DNA from: a virus
Lineage: Duplodnaviria; Caudoviricetes
IMG/VR virus record: IMGVR_UViG_3300027533_000013
Span: 1-64,000 of that record
Length of the DNA: 64,000 nt
Direction: 5' to 3' (one strand)
In this document: positions 16,935 to 49,999 of the stretch, piece by piece
How the letters are laid out: each line of letters starts with the position of its first letter
How positions within the stretch are numbered: position 1 is the stretch's first letter
The notes under the pieces: model-generated
Seen by the model: the letters and a program-made list of their open reading frames with translations, nothing else
Database searches by the model: none
What the model was told of the DNA's origin: nothing
Position numbers and translations under genes: made by a program

Positions 16935-16963
16935 TTGACAAACTATTTCACCCGTGGTATCTT
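16935..16963 (+). promoter_or_regulatory. sigma70-type promoter
   Basis: TTGACA-17-TATCTT, extended TG. Confidence 0.65.
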
Positions 16964-32670: not shown

Positions 32671-32699
32671 TTGCAATTGAGTGCAAAAATCCGTAGACT
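32671..32699 (+). promoter_or_regulatory. putative morphogenesis-operon promoter overlapped by the 14-bp palindrome
   Basis: TTGCAA-17-TAGACT; TGCAATTGAGTGCA at 32672-32685 covers the -35 and spacer. Confidence 0.55.
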
Positions 32700-32746: not shown

Positions 32747-34612
32747 ATGCTCAAGTTGATTGGCGACCCGGTCCAGAAATCTGAACACCCCGAGCACAAG
32801 ATAACCTTCATCCAGAAGGTGATTAAGGGTGAGACGTGGCTGGTGATGGCACACAGTGCCGTCGAGCTAGAGGACGAATGGTCCAGCCTCTACTTCACGT
32901 CAGGCAGTCAGAACAACCTGTTCCTGATGCCGCCTTTCGAGCCGAATGTCTTGCTCAACCTTGTCCAGACCAACAATGTCCTGAACCAGTGCATCGAAGC
33001 GATGGAGGTGAACATCGATGGCACAGGGCATGAATTTGTCCCGGTGGATGAAGGGAAGGACATCGATAAGAAGGAAGAGAAGATCGCCAAGGCGTTCTTT
33101 GATGAGCCGTACCCGAACATCTCCATGGTCACCATCCGGCGCAAGTTGCGGCGGCAGATGGAGTCTGTAGGGTATGGGTTTATTGAAGTGCTTCGGAACA
33201 TGGCCGAGGACGTGGTGGGTCTTCGCAGTGTGGAGACGGCCCACATCCGGATGGTGAAACTAGACAAGCCCATCCAAGTCAAGAAGAAGGTGCAGCGGGA
33301 TGGCACAGAAGTCGAGCTACTGATCTGGGAACGTGAGCGTCGTTTTGCACAGACCGTCGCCCTGAAACAGCAAGTGTACTATCGGGAATTCGGAACCACC
33401 CGTCATATTAACCGTGACACTGGGGATTGGGAAGAAGAAGGCAAGAAGATCCCGCCTGAAAAGCGTGGGTCGGAGTTGCTCTGTCTGGGTATTAACCCCG
33501 ACGTGACCACTCCGTACTGGTTGCCACGATGGATTAACCAGTTACCATCAGTCATTGGCTCCAGAGCCGCCGAGGAACAGAACCTCCAGTTCTTGGATGC
33601 TGGTGGCCTGCCCCCAGCCATTGTGTTCATTCAGGGTGGCACACTCATCAAGGACACGTCCGACCAACTTCGCATGTATTTGTCGGGCCTCAACAAGAAC
33701 AAGAACCGGGCGGTGGTGGTCGAGGTCCAGTCATCGTCAGGTTCACTTGATGCGGCTGGCAAGGTCGATGTGAAGGTGGAGCGTTTCGGTTCTGCCCAGT
33801 CTCAGGATGCGATGTATACCCAGTATGATGAGTCCACTAAGGAGCACATCCGTATTGGCTTCAGACTCCCACCCCTGTTTCTGGGTTATGCGTCAGACTA
33901 CAACTTCGCCACCGCACAAGTGAGCTACATGGTGGCCGAGGCGCAGGTCTTTCTGCCAGAGCGTGCTGAGTTTGACGAGATGATCAACAAGACCATCATG
34001 AAGGAGCTAAAACTCAAGACGCTCCTGTTCAAGTCGAAGCCCATCACGCTGAAGGATGTGGAGACGCAGTTGAAAGCTCTTGAATTGTCGGCGGCACTGG
34101 CCACACGCGAGAGCTACCTGAAGGAAATCAACACAGTCAGTAGCATGGCACTGGAACTGGCTGAAGTGCCTGCTCAGGGTGTTGGTCCCGACAACGTGCC
34201 ACTCAAGAATACGCCTACGGCTGATGAACTGGATTCGGGTAAGTTGCCTGCATCCATGACGGAAGTGAAGCCGGGTGTGAAGCCAGAACCCAAGGAAACC
34301 ATCGAAGAAATGGGGAAGAAGGAAGAAGTCAAGTCCATGGCCCGAGCAAAGGCCAAGGCCATGTATACCTTCAAGGAGCGGAAGGCGGCAGGCGATCTAC
34401 TTGCGTTGACGCAGGACTATGCCATGTATCAGGGTCTGATGCCCACACTGGCACAGAAGCAGGAATTGACCGCTGAGCGTGCTGAGGAAATCAATGCTGA
34501 GGTCGAGTCGTTGCACCCCGAAGACCTGAGAGCGTTTAATAGCTTACTGGCTATGGTGGTGTTTGGGTCCGATGATGCGGACCTGTCGTCCATCGTTGCG
34601 GCGTCGAGGTAA
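32747..34612 (+). CDS. portal protein (PBSX/XkdE-like)
   Basis: PPFEP..L, CIEAM..NIDG.G, GYGFIEVLRN, YWLPRW, FRLPPLFLG..DYNFATA; first gene of head module. Confidence 0.88.
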   Translation: MLKLIGDPVQKSEHPEHKITFIQKVIKGETWLVMAHSAVELEDEWSSLYFTSGSQNNLFLMPPFEPNVLLNLVQTNNVLNQCIEAMEVNIDGTGHEFVPVDEGKDIDKKEEKIAKAFFDEPYPNISMVTIRRKLRRQMESVGYGFIEVLRNMAEDVVGLRSVETAHIRMVKLDKPIQVKKKVQRDGTEVELLIWERERRFAQTVALKQQVYYREFGTTRHINRDTGDWEEEGKKIPPEKRGSELLCLGINPDVTTPYWLPRWINQLPSVIGSRAAEEQNLQFLDAGGLPPAIVFIQGGTLIKDTSDQLRMYLSGLNKNKNRAVVVEVQSSSGSLDAAGKVDVKVERFGSAQSQDAMYTQYDESTKEHIRIGFRLPPLFLGYASDYNFATAQVSYMVAEAQVFLPERAEFDEMINKTIMKELKLKTLLFKSKPITLKDVETQLKALELSAALATRESYLKEINTVSSMALELAEVPAQGVGPDNVPLKNTPTADELDSGKLPASMTEVKPGVKPEPKETIEEMGKKEEVKSMARAKAKAMYTFKERKAAGDLLALTQDYAMYQGLMPTLAQKQELTAERAEEINAEVESLHPEDLRAFNSLLAMVVFGSDDADLSSIVAASR

Positions 34613-34614: not shown

Positions 34615-35715
34615 ATGGACTACGCCCGTATTCTCAAGTGGAGTCCTAACCAGTTGCGAAACCCCGCAGGGTCACCCGAGGGAGGACGATGGGCGAAGGG
34701 TCTTACCCCACAGGGGGAACGAGATCGATGGCATGGGAAGGATCAGGCGAAGGGTCGGAGACTTGGTACAACTGAGGCTGCTAGGACCATAGAATTTCAG
34801 AGGAATGAAGCTCCCACGTTTCCCAAGGGTACGAGCACTCAGCAACGTGAGTACATTGCAGGGCTGTCTCCGAAGGCGCAGCGACGTATTCGGGACGCTG
34901 AAAATAAAGTCATACAGGATGCAGCACTGGCCGAGATGAAAGCCAATATGGCGGTGTCAAAGTCCCCGCCACTGGATCGGACTCCGTCTGGTGAACACAG
35001 GAATACGCTCAGGACGCCCATCGTAGAACACTCAGAACACACACGGGAGTTGGGCGGCGGCATCAATGAATCCTTGGTGGTGGAAATTGATGGCAAAGAG
35101 TTTGTGTTCAAGCCGGTTGAGGGAGAAAAACATGGCGGGAGTGGTGAGGCGTCACTCGCAGAACGTGAAGTGATCGCATCTCGCATGGATGACGAACTGG
35201 GGTTCGACTTGGTGCCCATGACGGTGATGGGTGAAGTCGAAATCTCGGCCCCTAAATATCCAGAATATGACGAGACGCCTGTGAAAAGGATAGGCTCACT
35301 CCAAGAGTTTCAGGCAGGCGCAAGGAATTATGGCGTGGCGGATGTGAGTGGTCTGTCACGAAAAGATATCGGGAACATGGCGGTGCTCGATGCCCTTCTG
35401 GGAAATACTGACCGGCATACCGGTAATGCCATGGTGAAAGGTAATCAGTTAATTGCCATTGACCATGGTTACACGATGAGTGAAGTACGCGGCACCAACA
35501 GTTTAGCGGTCGATAATCTCAGACGAGATGATTTACCCACGAAATATCAGGGCGAATTAGCGGAGCGCATTGAGAAGATGGATGTAGCCCGTGTGCTTGA
35601 TGGGTCACATATTGGGAAGGCGGAACGAGCGTCCTTTGAGCGCCGGAGAAAAATCGTCATCAACCAGTTGCGTAAGGGAGAAATCCACCTGATTGGTGGA
35701 GCGTTATATGCGTGA
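34615..35715 (+). CDS. HipA/PI3-PI4-kinase-like kinase 1, putative head cargo
   Basis: VFKP, AERE, LVPMTV, GSLQ, NTDRHTGN, AIDHG; leader YARILKWSPNQLRNPAGSPEGGRW. Confidence 0.8.
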   Translation: MDYARILKWSPNQLRNPAGSPEGGRWAKGLTPQGERDRWHGKDQAKGRRLGTTEAARTIEFQRNEAPTFPKGTSTQQREYIAGLSPKAQRRIRDAENKVIQDAALAEMKANMAVSKSPPLDRTPSGEHRNTLRTPIVEHSEHTRELGGGINESLVVEIDGKEFVFKPVEGEKHGGSGEASLAEREVIASRMDDELGFDLVPMTVMGEVEISAPKYPEYDETPVKRIGSLQEFQAGARNYGVADVSGLSRKDIGNMAVLDALLGNTDRHTGNAMVKGNQLIAIDHGYTMSEVRGTNSLAVDNLRRDDLPTKYQGELAERIEKMDVARVLDGSHIGKAERASFERRRKIVINQLRKGEIHLIGGALYA

Positions 35716-35977
35716 ACTCACCATCTATAACTACAGCATGAAGCCCGAAGAAGTCTTGGGTAAGGTACGGCTGGTGGAGGGTGAAGTCACCATCACTGGA
35801 TTCCCACCACGGATGATGGCCGAGCTACAGGCAGGCATGCCTGATGCGAACACCGGCACCCGCATCATGCCGGATCAGGGCGTGGTGTTTTTCGAAGCGG
35901 TGCTGAATCGGTATACCGGAGCGTATGTCCGAGCCGTGGAGCGGAGCATGGCGGATGTATTGAAGTCCCATGGCTAA
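35708..35977 (+). CDS. small protein, putative immunity/antitoxin for kinase 1
   Basis: overlaps kinase stop; homologous to 40151 and 41623 ORFs. Confidence 0.6.
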   Translation: MRELTIYNYSMKPEEVLGKVRLVEGEVTITGFPPRMMAELQAGMPDANTGTRIMPDQGVVFFEAVLNRYTGAYVRAVERSMADVLKSHG

Positions 35978-36452
35978 ATCCTTCACCGACGTGCTCAAGT
36001 GGGATGAGCATAAGCATCCCAGAGATAAACATGGGTTGTTCACGATGGGGACAGGCCCATTTGGGCACACGCCTGATGACCCCAAAAAAATCGTGCAGGT
36101 CTATGGGCTATCAGACTTTCCAGAGGATGCCCCGCCAGATCCCTTGGAGCCCAAGTATCAGACCGAGGAGAGAGCCGAGCAGGCTGAGCGGCGAAGCCAG
36201 CGAATTCATCTGACCCAAGAAAGTGATCCCAAGCTCCCACCTATGGGGTCGTTGACCACGAATACCGCCGCCAAGCAGCGGGGTATTGAGCGGCGGAAGA
36301 AGCGGAAGGAAAAAGCCGCACGGATGGCCGAAGCCAGACGAAAAGAAGGTGGCGTCGTCGGAGCGAAGCAGAGAGCCCTAGATTTCCGCATGGCGCAAGG
36401 CCGCGCACAGCAGAAAATTATCCGAGCTATCCGAGAGCGTAAAGACGACTAG
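35970..36452 (+). CDS. basic putative head-cargo protein
   Basis: FTDVLKWDEHKHPRDKHGLFT leader. Confidence 0.6.
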   Translation: MAKSFTDVLKWDEHKHPRDKHGLFTMGTGPFGHTPDDPKKIVQVYGLSDFPEDAPPDPLEPKYQTEERAEQAERRSQRIHLTQESDPKLPPMGSLTTNTAAKQRGIERRKKRKEKAARMAEARRKEGGVVGAKQRALDFRMAQGRAQQKIIRAIRERKDD

Positions 36453-36454
36453 CC

Positions 36455-38092
36455 GTGGCGAAGACTGTAGACCTGAGAACGTATATCGCACTGGAGAGGG
36501 CGTTTCTTAGGCGTCTTCTGCGGACGTGGCGTATTCAGTCGGCTCCCATTTACCAGAAAATCACGCAAGCCTGTCTCGACCATAAATGGGATGAAGCCCG
36601 TCGATTGGTGCCCGATCTGGATATGGCTGAAGTCGGCACGGAAAACAAAGAGTGGATTACCTACATGCTCCTGTCGTGTGGCGTGTTCGGGGCCAACATG
36701 GTGGCGAGAGGTAAACCCTCCTTTGTGGGCGTGGGCACTTTCGATACCTTCCTGAAGCAGACCACCAACAACATGCTCCAGTATCTGGAGCACAACGCCA
36801 CCGCACAGATTCAGAAGGATGCTCTGCAATTGATTGCAGAGGATGAGGCCAAGACCAAAGCCATCAAGTTCGATGAGAGTAAACACCCACGAGATGGTAA
36901 AGGTAGGTTCGCTTACCATGGCACGTCCAATGAGTTGGCCGAGAAGATTCTGAAGGAAGGACTCAAGCCTCTCAGCGAGATGGATCGGAGTTCTCCCATA
37001 GGGAAAGGGTTTGCATCCACGAGTGAGAAAGTGGCGCTGAGTTATGCGGCGATGGCGTCGGATGATTCGGTGGACACTATTACAGTGTTTGTGTTCAAGC
37101 CAGAAGCCAGTCGTTACTTCCAGCCTGCCAACAAGCATGCTTTTGGGCCATCGGGTTCGTGGGCACAAGCGCGTAGCACAGAGATGTCGAGCACAGAGAC
37201 TGTGCCACCGGAATTGATTCACGAGGTGCGTCAGTATCGACTGGCTGATGTGGTCGAGGCACTAGGGCCGCAAGGTGGGAAACAGTATGCAGATTGGGAG
37301 TCTCCACTGGAGGATGTAGATCCAGTGAAGGTGGTCCGAAAAGAAGATCAGGTCATTTATGTGGCCTTTTTGACCACGTCTGGGCCTGTGTTAAAATGGG
37401 ATGCGTCGAAACACCCACGGGAACCCAAGGGAAGCGCCATAGGAGGGCAGTTCACCGAGGGAACCGTGCAGGAGGGTCCGGACTTTACCCGAGTGGCCAT
37501 CACGAGTCAGCGGCCAGAGGGTGATCCGGGGCACCAAGCGAACAAAGAGGTCTTCCAGCACATGCACGAGTTCCAGAGCCGTCTGGAGGCCCTACCGGGG
37601 GTTACCAGAGTCTCTGTGAAGCCGGGAGTCGGTGGGTGGGATGGTGGGTCGGAGTCCATGTGGCAAGTGTTCTACCGGGGCAACGGAGCCGCCAGACGGT
37701 TGGTGGCGCAGACGGCTAAGACGTTCAATCAGGATGCGGTGCTGGTCCTGAAGAAGTGTACGGGCAGTAATTGCCAGCCTGCGGTAGAATTGTCGTTCGC
37801 GGGTGGGGTGTCTCCGGTCGTCAGGGAAAAGGTCCATGCGGTGCTGGTGAAGAACGGCATCCAAGGGTGGACGTGGATGAAGCGGGGCGGAAAGACCCTA
37901 CTCCGGATGGTGTCGGTGCCCCAGTGGGGTGGCGTGGCTGAGAAGCACCAGAAGGCGACAGCCGCCGTCAGTCAGAAGTTACGAGAGGATGGGCTAGAGA
38001 ACCATCGTAGCGTGCATAAAGTGGCCGTATCGGTCATGGAGCGCGAGGGAGACAACAGCTATGACCGAATCATCGGACGAACAGGCACGTAA
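36455..38092 (+). CDS. polyprotein: helical N-domain (possible MuF N-half) + ADP-ribosyltransferase-like domain + unknown domain
   Basis: AYHGTS..ILKEGLKP..FASTS..ALSYA (H-type ART); two internal K|[FW]D.SKHPR..G..F leaders. Confidence 0.65.
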   Translation: MAKTVDLRTYIALERAFLRRLLRTWRIQSAPIYQKITQACLDHKWDEARRLVPDLDMAEVGTENKEWITYMLLSCGVFGANMVARGKPSFVGVGTFDTFLKQTTNNMLQYLEHNATAQIQKDALQLIAEDEAKTKAIKFDESKHPRDGKGRFAYHGTSNELAEKILKEGLKPLSEMDRSSPIGKGFASTSEKVALSYAAMASDDSVDTITVFVFKPEASRYFQPANKHAFGPSGSWAQARSTEMSSTETVPPELIHEVRQYRLADVVEALGPQGGKQYADWESPLEDVDPVKVVRKEDQVIYVAFLTTSGPVLKWDASKHPREPKGSAIGGQFTEGTVQEGPDFTRVAITSQRPEGDPGHQANKEVFQHMHEFQSRLEALPGVTRVSVKPGVGGWDGGSESMWQVFYRGNGAARRLVAQTAKTFNQDAVLVLKKCTGSNCQPAVELSFAGGVSPVVREKVHAVLVKNGIQGWTWMKRGGKTLLRMVSVPQWGGVAEKHQKATAAVSQKLREDGLENHRSVHKVAVSVMEREGDNSYDRIIGRTGT

Positions 38093-38231
38093 GGAGTTGC
38101 GGGAAGCGTTGGCTCAGGAGCAGGCCACAGGTGAACCAGTGGATGACTCGTGGACCAATGACCTACCCAGTGATCCACTCCCCGAGGATGACGAGGACGT
38201 GTCGGCCACGTTCGTGAAGAAGCATACGTAG
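38061..38231 (+). CDS. small acidic protein
   Basis: GAGGGA RBS; MTESSDEQARKELREALAQE..PEDDED (56 aa, not in ORF track). Confidence 0.45.
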   Translation: MTESSDEQARKELREALAQEQATGEPVDDSWTNDLPSDPLPEDDEDVSATFVKKHT

Positions 38232-38237
38232 GACACC

Positions 38238-40094
38238 ATGCCACCACTTACCCGGCAATTGATTGCAACTATCAAGTCTATGGTGCAGGGCTATGCCCAC
38301 GTCTTGAAGTGGAATCGCAACCAGCCGCGTGGCCCGAAGGGGTCAGCCACGGGTGGGCAGTGGATCAGTCAAGGGAGTCATGGGACCGGAGCGGCCAGCG
38401 CAATCGATGATAAATACGGCACGGCACCGGGGATGGAACGCTACGCCACCCATGGGGATCGTGGCGCAGGCTTTTCCACCATGGATCGAGCACGGGCTAT
38501 CGCAGGCCACACGCGGACACCCGACCCATCCTTCAAGCCTGTTCTGTTGAACGTCAAAGAAGGTGGCCGAGGATTTGTGAATCGTCCTCGTGGAGTGGGT
38601 GTTCCCGAACCACCACCGCCTGATCCACATCAGGAAGTCATTCAGGCCCTGAAGACCGACCGAGCGACAGACAGCCGCCCACTGGGGAATGCAGGCAATG
38701 CGAATGCCTCATGTGTGGTGACGTTGGTGGATGACAAGGGGGAGACCATCGAAGCCGTCTATAAACCCGAACGTGGTGAATCGTGGAGTTTGCGTTTTGC
38801 GAACCATGACATCAAGAAGATGGTCACCAACAAGGACTTTTCGTTGGCGGCTCGTGAAACCTTTGCGTATGAGGTGGATTCGGCACTGAAGCTGGAAATC
38901 GTGCCTGAAACCGTGCTCCGTGAGGTCGTAGACGAAACTAACATCGATATCAACACCAAGGCCAAAGGCGGAATGAACAGTGGTGATGGGCAGGGATACG
39001 ATTCAGACCAAGCCCGAGAGGATTATCGAGACTATCAGGAAAATGCCGAAGAAGACGCCAGAGAAAATGCCTATGAGGAAGCTGGCGACCAGATGGCTGA
39101 CCTATACCATGAGGCACAAAAAGAGCATGTTTCTGATATCCAAGAACGTGCCAAAGAGGTACAGGAAATCTGGGATGAGGAATATGAGGCGTTCAGAGAT
39201 CAGGATGCCCATGGAACACGTTCCGCCATGTTGGAACATCCCACGTTGCCCATGGGGTCTAAGGAACCCTTTGAGCGCAAGCCGGATGAAGGCAAACTGA
39301 ATCCCATCGAGTTTCTGGATGAAGCAAACGTCGATGTCACGGACTCTATGAACGAGGCCGAGGAAAACAAGGTCCGAGAACTTATCCGAGCGAAATTGAA
39401 GGACGGCTACAGCGGGTTCGATGAAGTCGATGAAGATGACGCGGAAGAACATCTGGACCGGGATAAATTCATCGAAGACCATGCGGACACCGAGGCCAGA
39501 ATCATTGACAGTATCGTAGCGAAAAACGTCCAGTCCTATACCGAGTGGCGTCACGACCATGGGTATAACACGTCAGGCACTGCTCCGAGCGGCAGTGGGA
39601 GTGGCAGTGGCCCTGATATGAATCCTGATGCGCCCCATCCTCAAGGGGGGTCGTTTCAGCACTACCGCAGTGATGCACGGAAAGACGGATACCTCAGTGC
39701 CAGTGGTGGAGCCAAGTTGGCGGTGCTGGACTACATGATCGGCACCATGGATCGTCACCCGAACAATTTGATGTACGACGGAACGGAACCTGTGGCTATC
39801 GACAACGGCTACAGTATGCCTGCGGTGCCTGACGGTGATCCGCCCGATGCTTTCACCTTCCGGTCGCATGGCGCGAGGGATTGGGCTAGTTCCGGCACAA
39901 TACCAGACGCCACCCGAACTGAGATACTCGATTCCATGTCGAAGACGAATTGGCAGGCCGTGATGGACCGCCACCCGAACATGAATGCACTGGAGCGGAA
40001 GGCATTTCTGGGCCGTGTCGAGAAGATGAAGACGGCGTTGGGCACTCCGGATGGCCTGAAAAACCTGTGGAGCGGTTTGAACAATATGTGGTAA
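38238..40094 (+). CDS. HipA/PI3-PI4-kinase-like kinase 2 with large acidic insertion
   Basis: VYKP, ARE, IVPETV, MDRHPNN, AIDNG; leader YAHVLKWNRNQPRGPKGSATGGQW. Confidence 0.8.
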   Translation: MPPLTRQLIATIKSMVQGYAHVLKWNRNQPRGPKGSATGGQWISQGSHGTGAASAIDDKYGTAPGMERYATHGDRGAGFSTMDRARAIAGHTRTPDPSFKPVLLNVKEGGRGFVNRPRGVGVPEPPPPDPHQEVIQALKTDRATDSRPLGNAGNANASCVVTLVDDKGETIEAVYKPERGESWSLRFANHDIKKMVTNKDFSLAARETFAYEVDSALKLEIVPETVLREVVDETNIDINTKAKGGMNSGDGQGYDSDQAREDYRDYQENAEEDARENAYEEAGDQMADLYHEAQKEHVSDIQERAKEVQEIWDEEYEAFRDQDAHGTRSAMLEHPTLPMGSKEPFERKPDEGKLNPIEFLDEANVDVTDSMNEAEENKVRELIRAKLKDGYSGFDEVDEDDAEEHLDRDKFIEDHADTEARIIDSIVAKNVQSYTEWRHDHGYNTSGTAPSGSGSGSGPDMNPDAPHPQGGSFQHYRSDARKDGYLSASGGAKLAVLDYMIGTMDRHPNNLMYDGTEPVAIDNGYSMPAVPDGDPPDAFTFRSHGARDWASSGTIPDATRTEILDSMSKTNWQAVMDRHPNMNALERKAFLGRVEKMKTALGTPDGLKNLWSGLNNMW

Positions 40095-40100
40095 CAGTAA

Positions 40101-40129
40101 TTGACAAATTGTTCAAATTGTGATACAGT
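40101..40129 (+). promoter_or_regulatory. sigma70 promoter for putative immunity gene
   Basis: TTGACA-17-TACAGT, extended TG; GGAGG RBS follows. Confidence 0.7.
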
Positions 40130-40150
40130 AATGGGTGGAGGATTCTAGTT

Positions 40151-40378
40151 ATGCACACCGAGATTTGGGATCATACGGGGGGAAGGTCGAGGGTGATGGC
40201 CATCGTCCGAGTGGATGGTGGAAAGCTCTCGATTGAAGAAAAAGAACCCATGCCGCCATCCTATCACAAGATGATCGAGATGACGCAGGCACGGATGCAC
40301 GGAGAACGAGCGTTTCTACGGCAGTTGGAAGTGGAATTTTCGGGGTCATACATCACGGCGACGTTCAAGAAAGACTGA
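40151..40378 (+). CDS. small protein, putative immunity/antitoxin for kinase 2
   Basis: VRVDGGKL..FLRQLEVEFSGSY, homologous to 35708 and 41623. Confidence 0.6.
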   Translation: MHTEIWDHTGGRSRVMAIVRVDGGKLSIEEKEPMPPSYHKMIEMTQARMHGERAFLRQLEVEFSGSYITATFKKD

Positions 40379-40380
40379 CC

Positions 40381-41583
40381 ATGCTGATCTTCCAGCGGAA
40401 GCCTGTGCAATCAATTGCATACGTCTCCATCCTGAAGTGGGATCGGAACCAGCCCCGTGTCCCGAAAGGGTCACCAGAGAGTGGACGATGGACGCAGGGT
40501 GGTGTCAGTCAGGGTCTCGCCGCCACCACCATGGCCGGTCGAACGCCCAGAACGTCTACGTTCAAGCCGCCTGAGTATGGCTTTGGCAGTACGGAAGATC
40601 GTCGGATGGAAGCAGATAGGGCAAAAGCCGCAGGGTTTGCCACGATCATGAACGCCCCCATGGGCACGGGGTTTGCGAACCCACCACGTATCACCGGGCA
40701 ATCTTCGATGGTGAGGCGGTTGACGACGCCATCGAAAGCCCCGGTAGTATCGGCGGCACCAACTGGTTCGTCATTGAATTCGATGAGGACTGGCAACATC
40801 GCAGATTCTGAGGAAATCAATCCGGGGACACACGCCAATGAAACGTACAAAGTGACGTTGGAGGATGGGACCGTTGCCGCATTGAAGGCTGAATCAGGTG
40901 AACGCTGGGCCGCAGCCTTTTGGAATGACGATATTTCAAACTACGTCATCAACCGGGATCTGTCGCTGGGTGAGAGAGAAGCCATTGCCTTTGAAGTCTC
41001 AGAGGCGTTAGGACTGGATCTGGTGCCGGAGACGGTCCTCCGAGAACACATTGATGTTGTTAGTACCGGGCAACCTTTTGAGGGAGTGAACATCATGAAT
41101 GATGAGGCACCCCATCCACATGGAGGTAGTCTCACGAAGTGGGTGCCGGGTATTGATTCCGATGGTCAGAAAGCGACTCCACAAGAAATCCGAAGACTGG
41201 CAGTATTGGATTACGCTATGGGGCAGATGGATCGGCATCCCAACAATGTGTCCTTCGACGCTAATGGCAAGCTCCTCGCCATGGACAATGGTTACAGTCT
41301 TCCGGCTCCCATCTATGGTCATGATGAATTCACTTTCCGGTCGGCCACCACAAGAACGTGGAGGGAGTCAGCTAGTGACGACTTTCCAGAGGATGAACGG
41401 AAGCAAATGGCCGATGCGTTAGATAGGACGGACTGGACAGCGTTTGCTGATCGTCATTCGGGCATGAGCAGTCGAGAACGTGAAGCGTTTTTGGGTCGCA
41501 TTGAGAATCTGAAAGAAGCCATGAAGACCACCACGGGCTTGAAGGAACTGTGGAAGAACCAGACCCTGTATATGGACAATTGA
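40381..41583 (+). CDS. HipA/PI3-PI4-kinase-like kinase 3
   Basis: ALKA, GERE, LVPETV, MDRHPNN, AMDNG; leader YVSILKWDRNQPRVPKGSPESGRW. Confidence 0.8.
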   Translation: MLIFQRKPVQSIAYVSILKWDRNQPRVPKGSPESGRWTQGGVSQGLAATTMAGRTPRTSTFKPPEYGFGSTEDRRMEADRAKAAGFATIMNAPMGTGFANPPRITGQSSMVRRLTTPSKAPVVSAAPTGSSLNSMRTGNIADSEEINPGTHANETYKVTLEDGTVAALKAESGERWAAAFWNDDISNYVINRDLSLGEREAIAFEVSEALGLDLVPETVLREHIDVVSTGQPFEGVNIMNDEAPHPHGGSLTKWVPGIDSDGQKATPQEIRRLAVLDYAMGQMDRHPNNVSFDANGKLLAMDNGYSLPAPIYGHDEFTFRSATTRTWRESASDDFPEDERKQMADALDRTDWTAFADRHSGMSSREREAFLGRIENLKEAMKTTTGLKELWKNQTLYMDN

Positions 41584-41601
41584 CAAATTATCTGATAGAC
41601 T
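41573..41601 (+). promoter_or_regulatory. sigma70 promoter for putative immunity gene
   Basis: TGGACA-17-TAGACT, extended TG; GGAGG RBS follows. Confidence 0.55.
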
Positions 41602-41622
41602 ACAGGGGCATGGAGGTGCTAG

Positions 41623-41868
41623 TTGTACGCAGAACTTATCAATTATTCGATGGACCCGCCTAAAGTGATCCGGACCATCCGGATCGTGGATGGGAAGCTC
41701 GTCCAGACGGGTGACATGTCTCCGGAGAAGAGACGGCATCTGGAGCAGGAATATCATCTGTTCAAGACCAAGCTGAACGGCAGCGATAAGGATTTCTTGG
41801 AGAATCGGTTGGACGTGGTATTTGCGAGTAACACGTATTACAAGCCGAAGTTTCACCCCGAGGAGTAA
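41623..41868 (+). CDS. small protein, putative immunity/antitoxin for kinase 3
   Basis: INYSMDPPKV..IRIVDGKL; NYSM.P shared with 35708. Confidence 0.6.
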   Translation: MYAELINYSMDPPKVIRTIRIVDGKLVQTGDMSPEKRRHLEQEYHLFKTKLNGSDKDFLENRLDVVFASNTYYKPKFHPEE

Positions 41869-41873
41869 TACCC

Positions 41874-43649
41874 GTGCTGCAATCGATTGCAGGATATGCG
41901 GCGGTGCTGAAGGGTGGCACCTATAGCTATGGGAATACCCAGATCCCTATTGCTCCTACCAGTGCAGCCGCGCTTAGTCTGAACATGGCCCGAGACGCCA
42001 TTCAGGATGACCATCTGGAGGGCGCAGGAAAGGACGTGGACCCCAACCACGTCACGGTGCGGTATGGCCTGTTGAACGAGAACCTCGACGCCCTGAGAGC
42101 CTTTCTTGCCAGTCAGAAGCCTTTTGAGGCGCGAGTCGAGGGGGTGGAGTTATTCCCTGCCTCAGAACACTCGGATGGAGCCGTGCCCGTGGTGGCGAGG
42201 ATCGTGTCACCCGAGTTGCACGCTATCGAGGCTGAGATTGGAAATTACGCAGATTTCAAGGAAAAGAGCTTCCCGGTTTACAAACCGCACTGCACATTGG
42301 CGTATTGTAAACCGGAGATTGCCGAGCGGTATCAAGAACTATTTGTCTATGGTTCGTTTGTGGTGCAGAGCATCACCATCAGCCATGCGTCAGGTGTGCA
42401 GGAAACCATCCCGTTCGGTATAACGAATAAGTTCGATGTAACGAAGAAAGATCCGGTCAGCGGACGTTATGTCACGCCGTTTGTGTCGTTCGATAAGCAA
42501 GGCGATGAGCAGCTACGTATGATTACCAGTCTCAACGCCAGCCGCTTGGCGACGTGGGGATTTACGGCTGAGGCCGAAGTGCTGGGGATGGCCCGGTATC
42601 GTCTGACCGCCGTGCTCGATGGTCGGACCAGTAAGTTCTGCCGCATGATTGATGGCCATATTTTTGATGTGGCTGATGCGCGTGAGAAGGTGATTGAAGC
42701 CCTGAACGTGCAAGACCCCAACGACCTTCGCGTCGTCCAACCATGGCCCAAGCAGGACAAAGCATCGATGGCCATGTACAGCGAGATGAATGCCCAAGAA
42801 CTGACTGACCGAGGGCTACACATCCCACCCTACCACCCGCACTGCCGCACGTTGTGCCGGTCGGTGGAGTCGAGCAAGGGGAAGACCACCGAGGTCACGG
42901 CCACGGTGCCTGATGGGACTGAGGTCTTTCAGCCTGTCACAGCGGCTGACCTAGCGGAGATCGGTGTGACAGCGACTCCTGAACAGGTGGCCGAGTGGAA
43001 CGCCAACATCGGCATGTCTCCGGTCGAGTTGATGACCAAGCTCACTGGAGGGCGTCCCCAAGAGGTGATGACACGAGGCGTTGGTTCGAAGCCGGTGGAG
43101 TTTCATCCCTCTGGGGATATCGGACTGAACGCCCGAGGGGTCACGGATGGGGTGGAATTCAAGCTGGGGGCGATACTGGACCCATTCACGGGTATCTTCT
43201 ACTTGACCCGTGCGGAGTTGGCTGAGGGCACGCCAAAGGCCGAGGCCGCGTTCCTGAAGCGTATGTTCAGTGCCATGCTGGACATGGGGAAGAAGTCCAC
43301 GGCATCCTCGATTGCGCTCAGCGTGGCCGGTAATGCGGCATACTACGCCAAGCTGGGATTTCTGCCTGACGAGTTGGAATGGGATGCTCTGCGGACGTAT
43401 TCACTGGGAGAGTTGGAAGCAGGAGTGTTGCAGCCGATGATGGCATCGCTGGCCCCGGCTGATGCGTTGCTGGTGAAGCAGCTACTACAAGATGGGTCAC
43501 CATCGGCCTTAGTTGCTCTGACCGAGCTACCGTTCACCTACGCAGGCAAGACCATCGGTGAGTGGATTCTCAGTGAGTCGTCAGGTATTTGGGCACTGGA
43601 TCTGGCCGATGATTTGATGGTAGCGCAGGCGAAAGCGTACCTCTCATGA
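41874..43649 (+). CDS. Acb1/gp57B-like 2H phosphodiesterase + MuF (SPP1 gp7-type head morphogenesis) domain + GNAT-like C-terminal domain
   Basis: HVTVRYG and YKPHCTLAY (two HxT); AVLDGRTS.FC..DG..PPYHPHCR (MuF); AAYYAKLGF (GNAT-like). Confidence 0.8.
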   Translation: MLQSIAGYAAVLKGGTYSYGNTQIPIAPTSAAALSLNMARDAIQDDHLEGAGKDVDPNHVTVRYGLLNENLDALRAFLASQKPFEARVEGVELFPASEHSDGAVPVVARIVSPELHAIEAEIGNYADFKEKSFPVYKPHCTLAYCKPEIAERYQELFVYGSFVVQSITISHASGVQETIPFGITNKFDVTKKDPVSGRYVTPFVSFDKQGDEQLRMITSLNASRLATWGFTAEAEVLGMARYRLTAVLDGRTSKFCRMIDGHIFDVADAREKVIEALNVQDPNDLRVVQPWPKQDKASMAMYSEMNAQELTDRGLHIPPYHPHCRTLCRSVESSKGKTTEVTATVPDGTEVFQPVTAADLAEIGVTATPEQVAEWNANIGMSPVELMTKLTGGRPQEVMTRGVGSKPVEFHPSGDIGLNARGVTDGVEFKLGAILDPFTGIFYLTRAELAEGTPKAEAAFLKRMFSAMLDMGKKSTASSIALSVAGNAAYYAKLGFLPDELEWDALRTYSLGELEAGVLQPMMASLAPADALLVKQLLQDGSPSALVALTELPFTYAGKTIGEWILSESSGIWALDLADDLMVAQAKAYLS

Positions 43650-43871
43650 AGATGACCTTGAAACCGCTCAAGACAGACCATGCCACGCTAAAAATGGTGG
43701 TGTCGAAGCCTGTACCGAAGGCCAAGGCCCATCTCCAGTTGGTGACCAGACAGGGTGTGTCATCGGAACGAGCGAAGCAGTTACTGAGCTAGGAAAATAG
43801 TTGTTGCGTTCTTGCGTTGTCCTGTAAAATAAGACCCCGTGCAACTGATTGCAATTGTGAGTCAGTAACCC

Positions 43872-44978
43872 ATGCCCCTGCATACGAGTCGATTCGTGTC
43901 CCGGTATGGACTCACACATGCCGCAGAGCCATCCAAACCCAAACTCCCCTTTGAATTAGTCCTGAAGTTCAACAAGTGCCACGCAGACAATTCCGGCCAA
44001 TTCTGTGACACGAGTGGTGGCACAGGTGGTAAAGAAAGTGGCGGCATAGGCGGTAAAGAAAAAGAGACTGCGAACTTCAAGAAAACTGTCCCGAAGGACG
44101 GTGAATATCCGGTAGGCACAGAACAAGACCCCATCATCAGGGCGTCAGTGAAACGTCGGTACATGGCGGGGGAAATTGAACTGGCCGACGAGCAAAAAGA
44201 ATTCTTTGGGATCGGGCCGGAAGTGAAGTTCAATTCCAAAGCGGCCAAGGTGACGAAACCCTCCGCGAAGCCATCCGACGTGAAGTCTGAGGACGGGCCG
44301 ACGCAAGTGTTCTTGGATGCCAGTACGCCGGAAGGTATCACCACGGCGCTGAAGGCCATGGGATGGAAAGATAAGAGCAAGGTTACGAACCGTGACGAAC
44401 TTTTCAAAATCGCGGAAAACAATGGGAAGATTGCGGAGAAAGGGCGTAAGCTCATTCTTGAGGCGTTGGAAAGTAGCCCCCGTGGGAAGGGAAAGGTCAA
44501 GGTAACGAAGGCGAGTGGGATTGATCAGAAGACGGCGGATAAGCTACAAGCCAACGTCAATCTCTTGCTGCACCCGACCATCCTGAAGCAGTTGAAGTCC
44601 AAGAGTACGAATCTGACGAGGGGCAGGTCGAGTGGAGATGCCCATTACTCACATTCTATTGAGGGTCAGATTACGTTTGGGCATGGGATGAATAAAAACG
44701 ATCAAGAAGCAATCTATGTTCATGAATTCGGGCATAGAATTGAAGTGTCAGTCAAAGGGTTGTTGGCGAAGGCAACCAAGGCCCGAGACAAAGCCGTCAG
44801 TGAGAACGAACCGTTGGTCAATGAATACTCCGAGAAAGTGTACGAGCATATTAAGGGCACAGAATATGTGTCGTCTGGATACGAGCACTACTTCCGCGAT
44901 CCCATTTCCTTTGCCGCCAAAGCCCCGAAACATTTTACGTTCATTCATCGGCTGGTGACGCGAGGGGAGTTGGTATAA
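43872..44978 (+). CDS. putative head cargo with zincin metallopeptidase domain
   Basis: YVHEFGHRIE plus downstream EYVS; leader FELVLKFNKCHADNSGQFC. Confidence 0.65.
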   Translation: MPLHTSRFVSRYGLTHAAEPSKPKLPFELVLKFNKCHADNSGQFCDTSGGTGGKESGGIGGKEKETANFKKTVPKDGEYPVGTEQDPIIRASVKRRYMAGEIELADEQKEFFGIGPEVKFNSKAAKVTKPSAKPSDVKSEDGPTQVFLDASTPEGITTALKAMGWKDKSKVTNRDELFKIAENNGKIAEKGRKLILEALESSPRGKGKVKVTKASGIDQKTADKLQANVNLLLHPTILKQLKSKSTNLTRGRSSGDAHYSHSIEGQITFGHGMNKNDQEAIYVHEFGHRIEVSVKGLLAKATKARDKAVSENEPLVNEYSEKVYEHIKGTEYVSSGYEHYFRDPISFAAKAPKHFTFIHRLVTRGELV

Positions 44979-45244
44979 TGCAGGCGGTTATTAAGGTCGA
45001 GGGTGTCGAGGCGACATTCGATGGAGAGCGATGGGAGTGTCCCGATGCGACGTTAGCGGCGTTCCTGAATGCGTTTCGGTGGATGGGTTCTCGCCATAGC
45101 CAGTATGGTAGTGCTGGAAGCCATGCGGTGGCGGTGGCTGAAGAAATAGGAGCCGAAGTCGTTTCGGTGGAAGATACACCCACGGATAATGTCGATATCG
45201 TGAAGGGGTTGGGGGAGTCCGACGATGAGTCGGATGAGGAGTAG
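44978..45244 (+). CDS. small acidic protein, possible peptidase immunity
   Basis: coupled (TAATG) to peptidase gene; acidic tail. Confidence 0.5.
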   Translation: MQAVIKVEGVEATFDGERWECPDATLAAFLNAFRWMGSRHSQYGSAGSHAVAVAEEIGAEVVSVEDTPTDNVDIVKGLGESDDESDEE

Positions 45245-45248
45245 TTTG

Positions 45249-46064
45249 ATGGCCATTGACACTCGCAAATCGCTGGTCAAGAAATACAATCCCAACCACG
45301 GAGTTGATGGGCGGTTTACATCAGGGTCCAGTGGGCTAGGAAACCGTCGTATTGGAGAGCGTGGCGGTGGCACCGCAGGGGCACCTGTGAAGGATGCGTT
45401 TGGCAGGTCGATGGGTTACCAAAGCCCCCATCCTCCAACGAAACAGACAGTAGCCGCCCACAGTCCACAGGCACAGCAAACCGCAGCCCACCTTCATGGC
45501 GCGTCAGACGGTGGTTCGGGTATCGTCAAAGATCGCGTCTTCATTCCCGGTGTGACGGATGAATTTGGGAGAACGGCTGAGGAACAAGCGGCAGCAAAGG
45601 TACCCAAGTTTCAGATTGAGAATCCGGCTGGACCGGGTTTTCAGTTCAGTAGCGCACAGCGACAGGCGAACGCTAGAGAGATGTTCGGAGCATCACCGTT
45701 GAAGCCAGATCCTTATGGTGAGACCGCCAGAAAACCAAACATTTTGGTGAGACCAGAACCGGCTGCGTTTGCGACCACGATGCGAACACCTAAGACGCCT
45801 GTGATGGCTGAGACGGCTCGCACACCAGCGACCACCAGACATGCCCCCAAAGAGGCCACGTTTCATGCGCCGTCCAAGGACATCAACGAGTATGTGAATA
45901 CTCAGCACATGAGGCGACTGGAAGGTGAATCATTGAGTGCGTATGTGGAGCGCCGAAACTCGTTGTTGAAAACTCAACGTGATCGTGAGGCGAAAGTAGC
46001 GAAGGCGAGAGCGAACGCCAGTGCTCCATTTCTCAGGGGACGGCCACCAGCATTCGTGAGGTAA
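45249..46064 (+). CDS. low-complexity putative head-cargo protein
   Basis: SLVKKYNPNHGVDGRFTSG leader. Confidence 0.6.
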   Translation: MAIDTRKSLVKKYNPNHGVDGRFTSGSSGLGNRRIGERGGGTAGAPVKDAFGRSMGYQSPHPPTKQTVAAHSPQAQQTAAHLHGASDGGSGIVKDRVFIPGVTDEFGRTAEEQAAAKVPKFQIENPAGPGFQFSSAQRQANAREMFGASPLKPDPYGETARKPNILVRPEPAAFATTMRTPKTPVMAETARTPATTRHAPKEATFHAPSKDINEYVNTQHMRRLEGESLSAYVERRNSLLKTQRDREAKVAKARANASAPFLRGRPPAFVR

Positions 46065-46068
46065 CCTT

Positions 46069-46344
46069 ATGCCGCTCACGAACGGGTTGTTGACGAGTCG
46101 TGCGGCTGCTCTGAAGGGTGAGGGCCATATTCACTCGGAGAAGTGGCATCGCTGTGTGGAGCACGTCAAGGCCAAGGGTGGTGGATACGATCCGTACGCC
46201 GTCTGCACCTTCAGCATTGGGTACAATGAGTCGGTCAACAAGGAACATCAGACGCCGGGGCCACATTCTTCACGAGACACCCGCAGATTCAAGCGGCGGA
46301 AAGAGCGTGCTGAAAAGTATGCCGACGTATTGAAATTCAAATAA
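46069..46344 (+). CDS. small head-associated protein
   Basis: KWHRCVEHVK..PYAVCT; ends YADVLKFK. Confidence 0.55.
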   Translation: MPLTNGLLTSRAAALKGEGHIHSEKWHRCVEHVKAKGGGYDPYAVCTFSIGYNESVNKEHQTPGPHSSRDTRRFKRRKERAEKYADVLKFK

Positions 46345-46364
46345 CCCAGCAATAGGAGCACACC

Positions 46365-46604
46365 GTGACTGATAAACCGACACAGCTACCCACCGATCCC
46401 GACGACGAATCCGCTTCGCCACCGGAAGAAGGTGGTGAACGTCCTGATCAGGGACTTCCCGGCAAACCCGGTGGCATTGGTGGTCCCGGTAGACCCGATC
46501 AGGGGTTGCCCGGTCGTGGCCCCGGTGGACCGGGAAGCATCGGTGGTCCGAAGCCGACGCATCCGATTGCGCCGACACCCGAACCGAAGAAAGACAAGCG
46601 GTAG
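46365..46604 (+). CDS. Pro/Gly-rich small protein
   Basis: AGGAG RBS; two RPDQGLPG repeats, PTHPIAP. Confidence 0.55.
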   Translation: MTDKPTQLPTDPDDESASPPEEGGERPDQGLPGKPGGIGGPGRPDQGLPGRGPGGPGSIGGPKPTHPIAPTPEPKKDKR

Positions 46605-46673
46605 GGAAATTCTCCTGACGGTTGGCAATTGATTGCACGAATGGATCAGTTGCCAACCTGATTGGGGTGTAGA

Positions 46674-47207
46674 ATGTCCTTGGTACTGAAGTCCGAAGAA
46701 CAGCACATTGTCATGGGCGTTGCTCCGGGCTATTGGGTGTCGAATGATGGCCGAGTGTGGTCCACACGTCCATTGAACGGGCAGGGGCCATTATTGCCGT
46801 GGGAACAGCGCCGAGAGATGAAACCGATTGTTCAGCACAATCAATATCGAACGGTGGTGATTGATAGAAAGACCGTGGCAGTTCATGCACTTGTACTAAC
46901 GGCGTTTGTAGGCCCACGACCAGCCGGGAAGCAATGTCGCCATTTGGATGGTGACAAGTCGAATAACCGGCGAGACAATTTGATCTGGGGTACTTGTGTT
47001 GAGCAGTCAGAAGATCGGGCCAAACACGGCACTAAGTTAGTAGGGTCGAAGATAGGCACGGCGAAGTTGACTGAAGCGCAAGTGAAAGAAGCGCGGAGTA
47101 TGCGACCCACTTTTCCGCTTGATTACATTGCCAAGAAATTTGGAGTGACTAAGACCTGTATTTGGCATGCTGTTTCTGGTTCCGGCTCCAATTGGAGACA
47201 CGTATGA
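46674..47207 (+). mobile_element. free-standing NUMOD4/HNH homing endonuclease
   Basis: YWVSNDGRVWS, VHALV..AFVGP.P..CRHLDGDKSNNRRDNL.WGT, C-terminal HTH. Confidence 0.85.
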
Positions 47208-47794: not shown

Positions 47795-47798
47795 GATC

Positions 47799-48965: not shown

Positions 48966-49006
48966 CGACCAGATCCACCATTCACCGTTTTGTAGTAGGA
49001 GATGAC

Positions 49007-49948: not shown

Positions 49949-49967
49949 TCACCAGTCGTGAGGTTGC

Positions 49968-49999
49968 AAGGGACTCTTCCGCAAGGGGGAGTCCCTTTT
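49968..49999 (+). terminator. rho-independent terminator
   Basis: AAGGGACTCTTCC-GCAA-GGGGGAGTCCCTT then T-run. Confidence 0.75.

Follow-up and report, generated by a model that had tools for sequence, protein, structure and literature searches.

Predicted host-type promoters of the replication-gene class precede small putative partner genes of PI3/PI4-kinase-like proteins in a phage head operon

Introduction

The morons of lambdoid phages, reportedly described by Juhala and Hendrix in 2000, are autonomous promoter-gene-terminator units located inside late operons. In colicin and polymorphic-toxin operons, immunity genes carry a constitutive promoter of their own. Mycobacteriophage L5-type stoperators are tens of short operator copies dispersed over the genome, many of them at gene boundaries and one over a key promoter.

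Virion-packaged effectors and polyvalent phage proteins include T4 Alt and P1 Dar (Iyer et al., 2017, PMC5512222). MuF toxin genes, reported in temperate phages only and in work without promoter analysis, are directly followed by a small immunity ORF in 89% of cases (PMC5576092). In the HipBST system, the antitoxin HipS is the split-off N-terminal subdomain of HipA (PDB 7ab3, 7vkb). Virion-delivered effector arrays near the portal are widespread, and how phages shield themselves and their host during assembly has hardly been studied; a conserved, separately promoted kinase-partner gene would be a concrete and testable case of regulated self-protection.

Here we analyse a window of 64,000 nucleotides, the first part of the complete 119.7-kb record of an uncultured soil phage. 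Its head operon contains three PI3/PI4-kinase-like genes, each followed by a small ORF, and two predicted promoters, P1 and P2, as follows.

34615-35715, + strand: PI3/PI4-kinase-like protein 1 (366 aa; Pfam PF00454, E 5e-9, and paralogy)
35708-35977, + strand: small ORF 1 (89 aa), putative partner of kinase 1, paralogue of small ORFs 2 and 3
38238-40094, + strand: PI3/PI4-kinase-like protein 2 (618 aa; Pfam PF00454, E 1e-7)
40101-40129, + strand: predicted promoter P1, TTGACA(aa)-17-TGaTACAGT, in the 56-nt gap after kinase 2
40151-40378, + strand: small ORF 2 (75 aa), putative partner of kinase 2 (paralogy), its stop 2 nt before the kinase 3 ATG
40381-41583, + strand: PI3/PI4-kinase-like protein 3 (400 aa; domain search and paralogy), downstream of P1 with no terminator between
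41573-41601, + strand: predicted promoter P2, TGGACA-17-TGaTAGACT, its -35 within the last kinase 3 codons
41623-41868, + strand: small ORF 3 (81 aa, TTG start), putative partner of kinase 3, its stop 5 nt before the 2H/MuF GTG
41874-43649, + strand: 2H-phosphoesterase (2'-5' RNA ligase/Acb1-like) plus MuF/SPP1 gp7-like minor head protein (domain searches), downstream of P2

We class P1 and P2 as akin to moron-like or immunity-gene promoters, the term moron being used as in PMC2629481. Like those of morons, they are of sigma-70 type, lie in a short gap between late structural-module genes and are predicted to express a small accessory gene without recourse to the late promoter. Unlike morons, their units have no terminator, are tied to the upstream kinase gene and are followed by a conserved palindrome (TGCAATYRATTGCA) instead of a hairpin with a T run, and the phage looks virulent. 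Colicin and polymorphic-toxin pairs show the same order, a harmful enzyme gene followed by a small cognate ORF whose own promoter lies at the 3' end of that gene. As in toxin-immunity pairs, the small ORF is directly downstream of the kinase and co-inherited with it (10/10, and none in the kinase-free loci sampled), although kinase toxicity and protection by the small protein are putative here, unlike in the colicin and MuF pairs.

The array of kinase, ART/PARP-like, 2H, peptidase and MuF domains adjoining the portal resembles that of polyvalent proteins, and in one relative (G001) the effector array is fused in a single protein of more than 1235 aa. In contrast to our locus, no separately promoted partner genes are described for the systems of PMC5512222, whose kinase domain is of a truncated Ser/Thr-kinase type, whereas the kinases here match PI3/PI4-kinase. 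As in HipBST, a small alpha+beta protein is encoded beside a kinase, and HipS and HipA N-domains are among its weak structural matches; unlike in HipBST, there is no sequence similarity, and hipS precedes hipT while the small ORF here follows the kinase. Finally, the palindrome TGCAATYRATTGCA is dispersed, enriched at gene boundaries and overlaps the portal promoter, features that it shares with L5 stoperators; in contrast to these, it occurs without signs of lysogeny, its binding and blocking are putative, and, being a perfect palindrome, it has no orientation.

Results

Kinases, small ORFs and their pairing

A member of the small-ORF family follows every strong kinase match (>280 bits; 10/10), and none was present in any of the three kinase-free loci sampled. 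This one-to-one occurrence supports a cognate partnership of kinase and small ORF. Kinase 3 retrieved only a marginal match to the PI3K catalytic loop among PDB sequences. The ATG of small ORF 1 overlaps the stop of kinase 1 (ATGCGTGA, an 8-nt overlap), with no promoter ahead of this ORF and no palindrome behind it, and therefore a promoter of its own is not essential to the pairing.

The family of small ORF 2, whose AlphaFold model has a pLDDT of 96, comprises 93 clusters. Searches with the small protein gave no match in Pfam, PHROGs, NCBIfam or the PDB sequences, Foldseek retrieved none at E <= 0.001, and the ESM Atlas yielded nothing informative. Five aligned small-ORF sequences share no stretch conserved well enough to serve as a query for related loci. 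Similarly, structure comparison with VIA-align gave a best Z of 4.6, which amounts to no informative fold match, and the HipS chains 7ab3_B and 7vkb_B (Z 4.1) and the HipA N-domains (Z 3.2) were below the level separating relatives from chance. In four database homologues the small domain is fused in frame to a downstream tag and an unrelated effector domain (ParB-like or other), an architecture more in keeping with a helper at the N-terminus of the next protein than with an antidote to the protein before it. A related-locus search with the fused homologue P0043 found nothing, and the same search with P0053 gave 80 loci matched only in the ParB-like C-terminal domain, none of them with a small-ORF homologue.

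Geometry of P1 and P2

The letters and the 17-nt spacing of both promoters, as originally noted, were confirmed by direct reading of the sequence, and both are located directly ahead of the small ORFs that follow kinases 2 and 3. P1 consists of TTGACA (40101-40106), a 17-nt spacer ending in TGa, and TACAGT (40124-40129), with a predicted start near 40136, followed by GGAGG and the ATG at 40151. P2 consists of TGGACA (41573-41578), a 17-nt spacer ending in TGa, and TAGACT (41596-41601), with a predicted start near 41608, followed by GGAGG and the TTG at 41623. The distance from the end of the -10 to the start codon is 22 nt in both, with the GGAGG between. A generic sigma-70 scan picked up both sites, each with TG ahead of the -10, and such generic look-alikes are not above chance between 31 and 50 kb (9 observed against 10.7 +/- 3.7 in shuffles).

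An additional -35-like element lies close to that of P2.

41580-41589, + strand: perfect but displaced -35-like TTGACAAATT, 7 nt downstream of the P2 TGGACA

In the alignment of the two gaps, this TTGACAAATT is aligned with the P1 -35 but is located 10 nt from TAGACT, which is the wrong spacing, and P2 scored with it as the -35 reaches only 6.8 bits. It looks like the original -35 of P2, put out of register by a spacer deletion of about 5 nt.

A phage-wide promoter family

P1 and P2 are members of a genome-wide family with the form TTGACAAA(T/C)..TGnTAnnnT. With a PWM trained on the 19 other members, leaving out P1 and P2, and a threshold of at least 17 bits, the 119.7-kb genome contains 27 sites on the + strand and one on the - strand, compared with 0.21 sites per genome expected by chance in dinucleotide shuffles. 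The + strand scores leave an empty interval between 12.7 and 17.5 bits. P1 scores 28.3 bits, in the middle of the family range, and presents every family element: the -35 TTGACA(AA), a spacer of 17 +/- 1 nt, the TGn-extended TAnnnT and the position on the coding strand. P2, with one -35 mismatch (TGGACA) and without the AA, scores 18.4 bits, the lowest but three in the family and above the empty interval. Indeed, a simple TTGACA-N16-18-TAnnnT pattern is found eight times in the 64-kb window, always on the + strand, against 0.82 expected, and both approaches agree with the earlier proposal that P1 and P2 share the design of promoters in the early region.

Sites of the family are found ahead of thymidylate-synthase-like, DNA polymerase, helicase, primase, recombinase and ligase genes, and are absent from the tail-fibre block (2.1-16.9 kb) and from 98.8-110 kb. 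A weak terminase match falls within the latter region. Across the 51-kb head/tail block (27.1-78.4 kb), P1 and P2 are the only family members and, between 27091 and 78365, the only sites of at least 12 bits, so the morphogenesis operon holds no other + strand promoter of this type, as had been noted before. The next best site is the following.

37370-37397, + strand: promoter look-alike TTGACC-16-TGtTAAAAT in the PARP-like gene (10/12 matches; 11.5 bits)

The letters of this look-alike encode the peptide tag ..LT..VLKWD... Our results support the assignment of P1 and P2 to a predicted class of host-RNAP promoters that otherwise heads replication and nucleotide-metabolism genes. Neither sigma-70 region 2 or region 4 domains nor HTH_3 were found in the genome, and the phage group has no recognisable sigma factor or RNA polymerase of its own.

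The portal operon has a promoter of a different build.

32671-32699, + strand: predicted portal-operon promoter TTGCAA-17-TAGACT, overlapped by the palindrome variant TGCAATTGAGTGCA (32672-32685)

This promoter, with a predicted start near 32706, and its overlapping palindrome are kept in 10 of the 12 relatives aligned. Its different build, together with the operator-like palindrome over it, makes two promoter classes plausible, the P1/P2 family and the portal type.

Conservation in related phages

No close DNA relative was present in the phage collection searched, and seven related phages keep a promoter in the gap between kinase and small ORF. Four of them (L043, L041, L051 and L028) present TTGACA-17/19-TGnTA(A/C)ACT, and the other three (L026, G002 and G001) present TGnTATAAT. 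For G001 and G002, one a whole record and the other a 59% fragment, the gap holds the only TGnTATAAT of the record, and the TGNTATAAT in the gap is the only copy on either strand. Among the five sites with a 17-nt spacer (10 pairs), the hexamers and TGn are 85% identical against 37% for the spacers, and 18-22 nt separate the -10 from the start codon in every promoter compared across relatives. These phages share ancestry, their portals being 69-89% identical, and therefore the conservation counts are not independent events. The equal position of the promoter in seven relatives makes it probable that synthesis of the small partner proteins does not depend on that of the late head genes.

Read-through and the palindrome

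No intrinsic terminator-like site is found on the + strand from 40130 to 49976, where the first one past P1 and P2 is located.

49976-49991, + strand: first terminator-like hairpin with a T run past P1 and P2 (scan)

The hairpin comes directly after a 313-aa gene (49007-49948) that we take, from its position, to be the major capsid gene. The stop of small ORF 2 and the next start are at 40378 and 40381, those of small ORF 3 and the gene after it at 41868 and 41874, and in relatives the two either overlap or are separated by 2-5 nt; small ORFs 2 and 3 are translationally coupled to the next gene. With no terminator and abutting starts, transcripts from P1 and P2 would also carry kinase 3 and the 2H/MuF gene unless blocked, and such read-through is our default expectation. 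The original prediction that both promoters serve only the putative immunity genes finds no support here.

A 14-bp palindrome, TGCAATYRATTGCA, is located 6-32 nt past all nine promoter-led small ORFs of the window and its relatives. The two copies in question are the following.

40406-40419, no strand: palindrome TGCAATCAATTGCA, 28 nt after the small ORF 2 stop, in kinase 3 codons 9-13
41878-41891, no strand: palindrome TGCAATCGATTGCA, 10 nt after the small ORF 3 stop, in 2H/MuF codons 2-6

At no more than one mismatch, the genome contains 43 copies, against 0-6 in shuffles, and 16 of the 43 are within 50 nt of a gene start. The palindrome may be a regulator site, acting as a control point or a protein-bound roadblock. 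RNA downstream of the small ORFs shows no unusual folding (z-scores -1.2), and a role of the palindromes as RNA hairpins or terminators was rejected on account of this unremarkable folding.

Discussion

We consider it rather probable, on the strength of the sequence comparisons above, that P1 and P2 are working host-RNAP promoters of the replication-gene class that uncouple the synthesis of the small partner from that of its kinase. Unmodified host RNA polymerase would read both, and each unit would consist of the promoter, a short leader starting at the ribosome-binding site, and a 73-89 aa protein that constantly accompanies a PI3/PI4-kinase-like head-module protein on its downstream side. 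The other head-operon genes would depend on the palindrome-overlapped portal promoter, and it is this use of a different promoter that would set the partner apart from its kinase. Synthesis of the partner could thus precede that of the kinase, exceed it, or both, an arrangement that would be expected for the inhibitor or antidote of a harmful enzyme. This supports in part the earlier interpretation, in which antidotes would be made at once on infection against kinases that may be packaged in the virion. Several observations weigh against this explanation: P2 scores low within the family, no promoter precedes small ORF 1, the missing terminator means that kinase 3 and the 2H/MuF gene would be served as well, and the small protein has four fused homologues and no informative fold or family match.

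In a second reading, P1 and P2 mainly provide early host-RNAP expression of the genes past the small ORFs (kinase 3, 2H/MuF and beyond), the small ORF being the first cistron and its product assisting the next effector as chaperone, adaptor or N-terminal module instead of acting as an antidote to the preceding kinase. It would account for the lack of a terminator before 49976, for small ORF stops that touch or run into the following start codon in this phage as in its relatives, and for the order of the fusions (small domain, tag, ParB-like or other effector), and the 2H/Acb1-like enzyme is of a counter-defence kind that would be useful early. We nevertheless regard it as unlikely, as the next gene varies in relatives (kinase, 2H/MuF, 207-301 aa proteins or a giant polyvalent protein) while the preceding gene is a kinase in 10/10, small ORF 1 is coupled to the upstream kinase by its 8-nt overlap, and the palindrome parts the small ORF from the body of the next gene in 9/9.

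A classical moron would be expressed from a silent prophage or pseudolysogen, its lytic genes held by a palindrome-bound repressor, and would shield the carrier from kinases injected by superinfecting kin phages. The host-type promoter inside a late operon agrees with this, as do the resemblance of the genome-wide palindrome to stoperator-type repression sites and its overlap with the portal promoter. However, given that neither integrase nor resolvase was found in the complete 119.7-kb record, that a search of one genome per species across 185,579 species gave no prophage relative, and that the full replication set is typical of virulent phages, a moron of this kind seems very improbable; the prophage-based host search retrieved only a 33%-identical fragment in an Omnitrophota MAG. 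It is likewise hard to believe that P1 and P2 are inactive look-alikes, whether remnants copied with the duplication of kinase and small ORF or chance AT-rich gap sequence, when a site of at least 17 bits is expected 0.21 times per genome, when seven relatives with diverging spacers retain the hexamers, the spacer length and the distance from -10 to start, when P2 has apparently recovered a -35 with a 17-nt spacer following the deletion, and when TGNTATAAT is unique to the kinase-to-small-ORF gap in G001 and G002. This judgement takes into account that the P1 and P2 gaps are paralogous and hence not two independent occurrences, that P2 has a poor -35 and a displaced TTGACA, that generic sigma-70 look-alikes between 31 and 50 kb occur at chance frequency, and that tag-coding DNA elsewhere imitates promoters.

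Returning to the uncoupling of partner and kinase, the conserved layout in which promoter, small ORF and palindrome lead into the next effector offers, along with the portal promoter and its overlapping palindrome, a handle on the temporal programme of this uncultured 120-kb soil phage group, whose contigs come from soil and rhizosphere samples. A more far-reaching version, which we put forward tentatively and think doubtful, is that of a self-contained early unit in a virulent phage, where host polymerase initiates at P1 or P2 and, within a few codons of the next gene, meets a TGCAATYRATTGCA-bound protein that stops it and also shuts the portal promoter. Until the late switch, synthesis would then be limited to the kinase inhibitors, which would neutralise kinases that might enter with the DNA or are soon made and would represent a new family of such inhibitors, possibly HipS-like. 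The only lead for a regulator acting at the palindrome is the product of 91054-91506, with a weak MerR-like match at genome positions 91276-91413.

Promoter family and genome layout

The window covers the initial 64 kb of an IMG/VR virus record that comprises 119,701 bp with 55% G+C, is rated 100% complete and carries essentially all of its genes on the + strand. An array of non-structural enzymes lies directly after the portal gene and includes three paralogous PI3/PI4-kinase-like proteins (kinases 1-3), each with a small ORF downstream, and two promoters, P1 and P2, had been predicted in front of the second and third of these small ORFs.

Features of the record discussed in the text
12-16 kb, tail-fibre genes
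17-27 kb and 78-97 kb, replication and nucleotide-metabolism genes
32747-34612, portal gene
34615-35715, kinase 1, PI3/PI4-kinase-like
35708-35977, small ORF 1
36455-38092, PARP-like protein
38238-40094, kinase 2, PI3/PI4-kinase-like
40101-40129 (+), P1, TTGACA-17-TGaTACAGT
40151-40378, small ORF 2 (75 aa)
40381-41583, kinase 3, PI3/PI4-kinase-like
41573-41601 (+), P2, TGGACA-17-TGaTAGACT
41623-41868, small ORF 3 (81 aa)
41874-43649, 2H-phosphoesterase/Acb1-like domain fused to a MuF/SPP1 gp7-like minor head protein (2H/MuF)
43872-44978, ATLF-like peptidase
49007-49948, 313-aa gene, taken as the capsid gene by position
105.5 kb, terminase (weak match)
118.4 kb, ligase

Reading of the sequence placed both promoters exactly where they had been predicted, and a generic scan also reported them. 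Since the sigma-70 look-alikes of the 31-50 kb region are not in excess (nine against 10.7 ± 3.7 by chance), a consensus match alone proves nothing, and the weight of P1 and P2 comes from their membership in a sharply defined promoter family, the sigma-70-type class of this phage (TTGACA -35, TGn-extended TAnnnT -10). The pattern TTGACA-N16-18-TAnnnT occurs eight times in the window, always on the + strand, against 0.82 expected. Across the whole genome, 20 + strand matches have a perfect -35; almost all of them read TTGACAAA(T/C), and in most the -10 is preceded by TGn. A position weight matrix was trained on 19 family members, leaving out P1 and P2. At 17 bits or more it retrieved 27 sites on the + strand of the genome and one on the - strand, against a chance level of 0.21 sites per genome in 100 dinucleotide shuffles, and the interval from 12.7 to 17.5 bits was empty. 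P1 (28.3 bits) is located in the middle of the family and P2 (18.4 bits) at its low end, yet above the empty interval. Aligned with P1, P2 has lost about 5 nt of spacer, after which its original TTGACAAATT (41580-41589) is out of register, and TGGACA, made by the last codons of kinase 3, now has a spacer of exactly 17 nt to the -10, a history that parallels the selection on promoter elements described below for the relatives. On sequence grounds, the two sites are confirmed far beyond chance.

Family sites precede genes of replication, recombination and nucleotide metabolism, together with numerous small genes at 110-119 kb. The replication and nucleotide set comprises a 'kinase' family protein (phrog_18609), thymidylate-synthase-like proteins, a DNA polymerase, a DnaB-type helicase, a second helicase, a primase, a UvsX-like recombinase, an exonuclease and RuvC. 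The matrix scan found no family site in 2104-16935 (tail fibres) or in 98790-110000 (the region of the weak terminase match), and P1 and P2 are the sole members in 27119-78365, from portal to tail. The original prediction was correct on both counts, that the two promoters have the same design as those of the replication region and that they are the only ones in the morphogenesis block. Back-to-back family promoters at 78345 (- strand, 25.5 bits, the only member on that strand) and 78365 (+ strand) close this structural block.

An N-terminal tag, (I/V)LK(W/F/Y)..(N/H)(Q/K)(P/H)(R)...G..(W/F), is common to unrelated head-module proteins encoded in 34615-46064, including kinases 1-3, a 160-aa protein at 35970, the 2H/MuF and ATLF-like proteins and a protein at 45225. 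As a caveat to the uniqueness of P1 and P2, the PARP-like gene contains a look-alike promoter, TTGACC-16-TGtTAAAAT (37370-37397; 10/12 in the generic scan, 11.5 bits by the family matrix), whose letters encode the shared peptide tag (..LT..V[LV]KWD.xKHPR..). The tag-coding DNA mimics a promoter, TTGAC[CA]-16-TGnTAAAAT, in relatives too (L050 18036, L026 17635, L043 13662, L028 14510), and its equivalent in the related genome G001 reaches 29.4 bits. Such sites may be a coding by-product or further internal promoters at domain junctions of polyvalent proteins. Separately, the only TGNTATAAT of this genome, at 44971-44979 (TGGTATAAT), arises where the stop of the ATLF-like peptidase gene overlaps, as TAATG, the start of an 88-aa ORF (44978-45244), and is too near that ATG to be its promoter.

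A 127-nt exact direct repeat links window positions 1-127 to genome positions 118903-119029, about 800 nt before the record end; over the remaining stretch the ungapped identity is 54%, and the repeat may reflect duplication of part of a gene or an effect of assembly at the record ends.

Conservation of the promoters and of the kinase/small-ORF pairs

The comparison covered 42 related loci from soil-type metagenomes, retrieved by searches first with kinase 3 and later with the portal protein. Seven distinct relatives carry a single small-ORF family member each, as detected by a profile, and this member always lies immediately downstream of a kinase; in all seven the gap between the two genes holds a promoter-like element.

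Promoter-like elements in the kinase/small-ORF gap of relatives
L043, TTGACA-17-TGgTAAACT
L041, TTGACA-17-TGaTACACT
L051, TTGACA-19-TGaTACACT
L028, TTGACA-17-TGgTAAACT
L026, TGgTATAAT
G002, TGcTATAAT
G001, TGgTATAAT

The sites of L043, L041, L051 and L028 score 23.8-27.9 bits by the window's matrix. The records of G001 (117.5 kb, complete) and G002 (68 kb, 59% complete) contain no TGNTATAAT on either strand other than the one in this gap. Among the five sites with 17-nt spacers (10 pairwise comparisons), identity is 85% at the -35, TGn and -10 positions against 37% in the spacers, a pattern that indicates selection for the promoter elements rather than for the entire gap. The -10 is located 18-22 nt from the start codon in all nine sites, which are not independent events because the relatives share ancestry.

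The products of small ORFs 2 and 3 are paralogues, and a third, small ORF 1, follows kinase 1, its ATG overlapping the kinase stop and no promoter preceding it. In a library of 1.84 billion proteins, the family forms 93 representative clusters, nearly all of 70-90 aa. A family member follows strong kinase matches in 10 of 10 cases among the genomes and loci examined and is absent from the three examined loci without the kinase, which supports a cognate partnership. The class, uniqueness, conserved position and cognate pairing of the predicted P1 and P2 units are shown.

The AlphaFold model of the small protein, of very high confidence (pLDDT 96), displays three strands, two helices and one strand. 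Foldseek retrieved no structural relative and the best VIA-align match (Z 4.6) was not convincing; weaker ones include HipS (Z 4.1; 7ab3_B, 7vkb_B) and HipA N-terminal domains (Z 3.2). In the HipBST kinase system, HipS acts as the small antitoxin, and its likeness to the modelled protein is a lead, not evidence, worth testing because the kinases adjoin the small ORFs. In four database homologues the small domain is fused in frame to a tag (GHAGRPG..GGS or WDESQHPRD between the domains) and to an effector domain of unrelated type, ParB-like in one case; these fusions speak against a simple antidote reading.

Transcription units and a putative regulatory palindrome

The proposal that P1 and P2 serve only the small ORFs is not borne out by the sequence. 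No terminator-like site was found on the + strand from P1 to 49976, just past the 313-aa gene, and shuffled sequences fold just as well as the RNA that follows each small ORF. The stop of small ORF 2 is 2 nt from the kinase 3 ATG and that of small ORF 3 is 5 nt from the 2H/MuF GTG, the ribosome-binding site of the 2H/MuF gene lying inside small ORF 3; in relatives, the small ORF and the next gene overlap or are 2-5 nt apart. Therefore, by default, P1 would also serve kinase 3 and P2 the 2H/MuF gene. In G001, the gene after the small ORF (L009 6048-9752; G001 107555 onward) is a single open frame of more than 1235 aa with several tag-separated domains, among them a 2H-phosphoesterase, forming a polyvalent protein in place of the separate genes of the window.

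A 14-bp palindrome, TGCAATYRATTGCA, occurs in 43 copies at up to one mismatch in this genome (22 exact; 0-6 in shuffles), for example at 1193-1206, 16337-16350, 36825-36838, 38254-38267, 40406-40419, 41878-41891, 46624-46637, 54834-54847, 58233-58246 and 62702-62715, and is abundant in relatives (37 in G001, 21 in G002). Sixteen of the 43 copies are within 50 nt of a gene start. Each of the nine promoter-led small ORFs has the palindrome 6-32 nt past its stop codon, irrespective of the next gene, and the promoter-less small ORF 1 has none after it. Since it is found in gaps and in all three frames of unrelated genes, selection acts on it at the DNA level; the peptide of the commonest frame, (L/V)Q(S/L)IA, is harmless.

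The portal promoter, TTGCAA-17-TAGACT (32671-32699), has its -35 and spacer covered by the palindrome, and no other TTGCAA-N16-18-TAnnnT occurs on the genome's + strand. Promoter and palindrome make up a conserved block that the window shares with 10 of 12 aligned relatives, within the 200 nt upstream of the portal (L026, L028, L037, L041, L043, L044, L045, L048, L050 and L051); a conserved TTTGTCAAGG follows it just before the portal ATG, and several relatives have a T-run hairpin in front of it. Some family promoters, in G001 and at 88859 and 117421 of this genome, likewise have the palindrome directly beside their -35. The obvious reading is that a dimeric DNA-binding regulator would bind the palindrome; if this putative regulator repressed the portal promoter and blocked elongation at intragenic copies, P1 and P2 would express the small ORFs alone. 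A candidate binder is the 150-aa replication-module protein encoded at 91054-91506, with a weak match to a MerR-type helix-turn-helix (91276-91413; E 8.6e-5, below cut-off).

Timing and relation to known systems

The phage looks virulent, since searches of the genome detected neither a sigma factor domain nor an integrase or resolvase, and no prophage relative turned up among one genome from each of 185,579 species. Class membership suggests, as the simplest view, that unmodified host polymerase uses these strong consensus promoters from the onset of infection.

The closest precedent in phages is the small ORF that follows MuF toxins (PMC5576092), and the enzyme array matches the virion-delivered 'polyvalent protein' theme (PMC5512222), with several of the array's domains fused in one G001 protein; partner genes with their own promoter are described in neither study. 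The original interpretation is partly supported, with exclusive service, early timing and antidote function being putative. As in morons, a host-type promoter is located inside a late operon, but the terminator, the defining part of a moron, is missing. In colicin-type and polymorphic-toxin operons, immunity genes are separately promoted, and the arrangement here would work alike.
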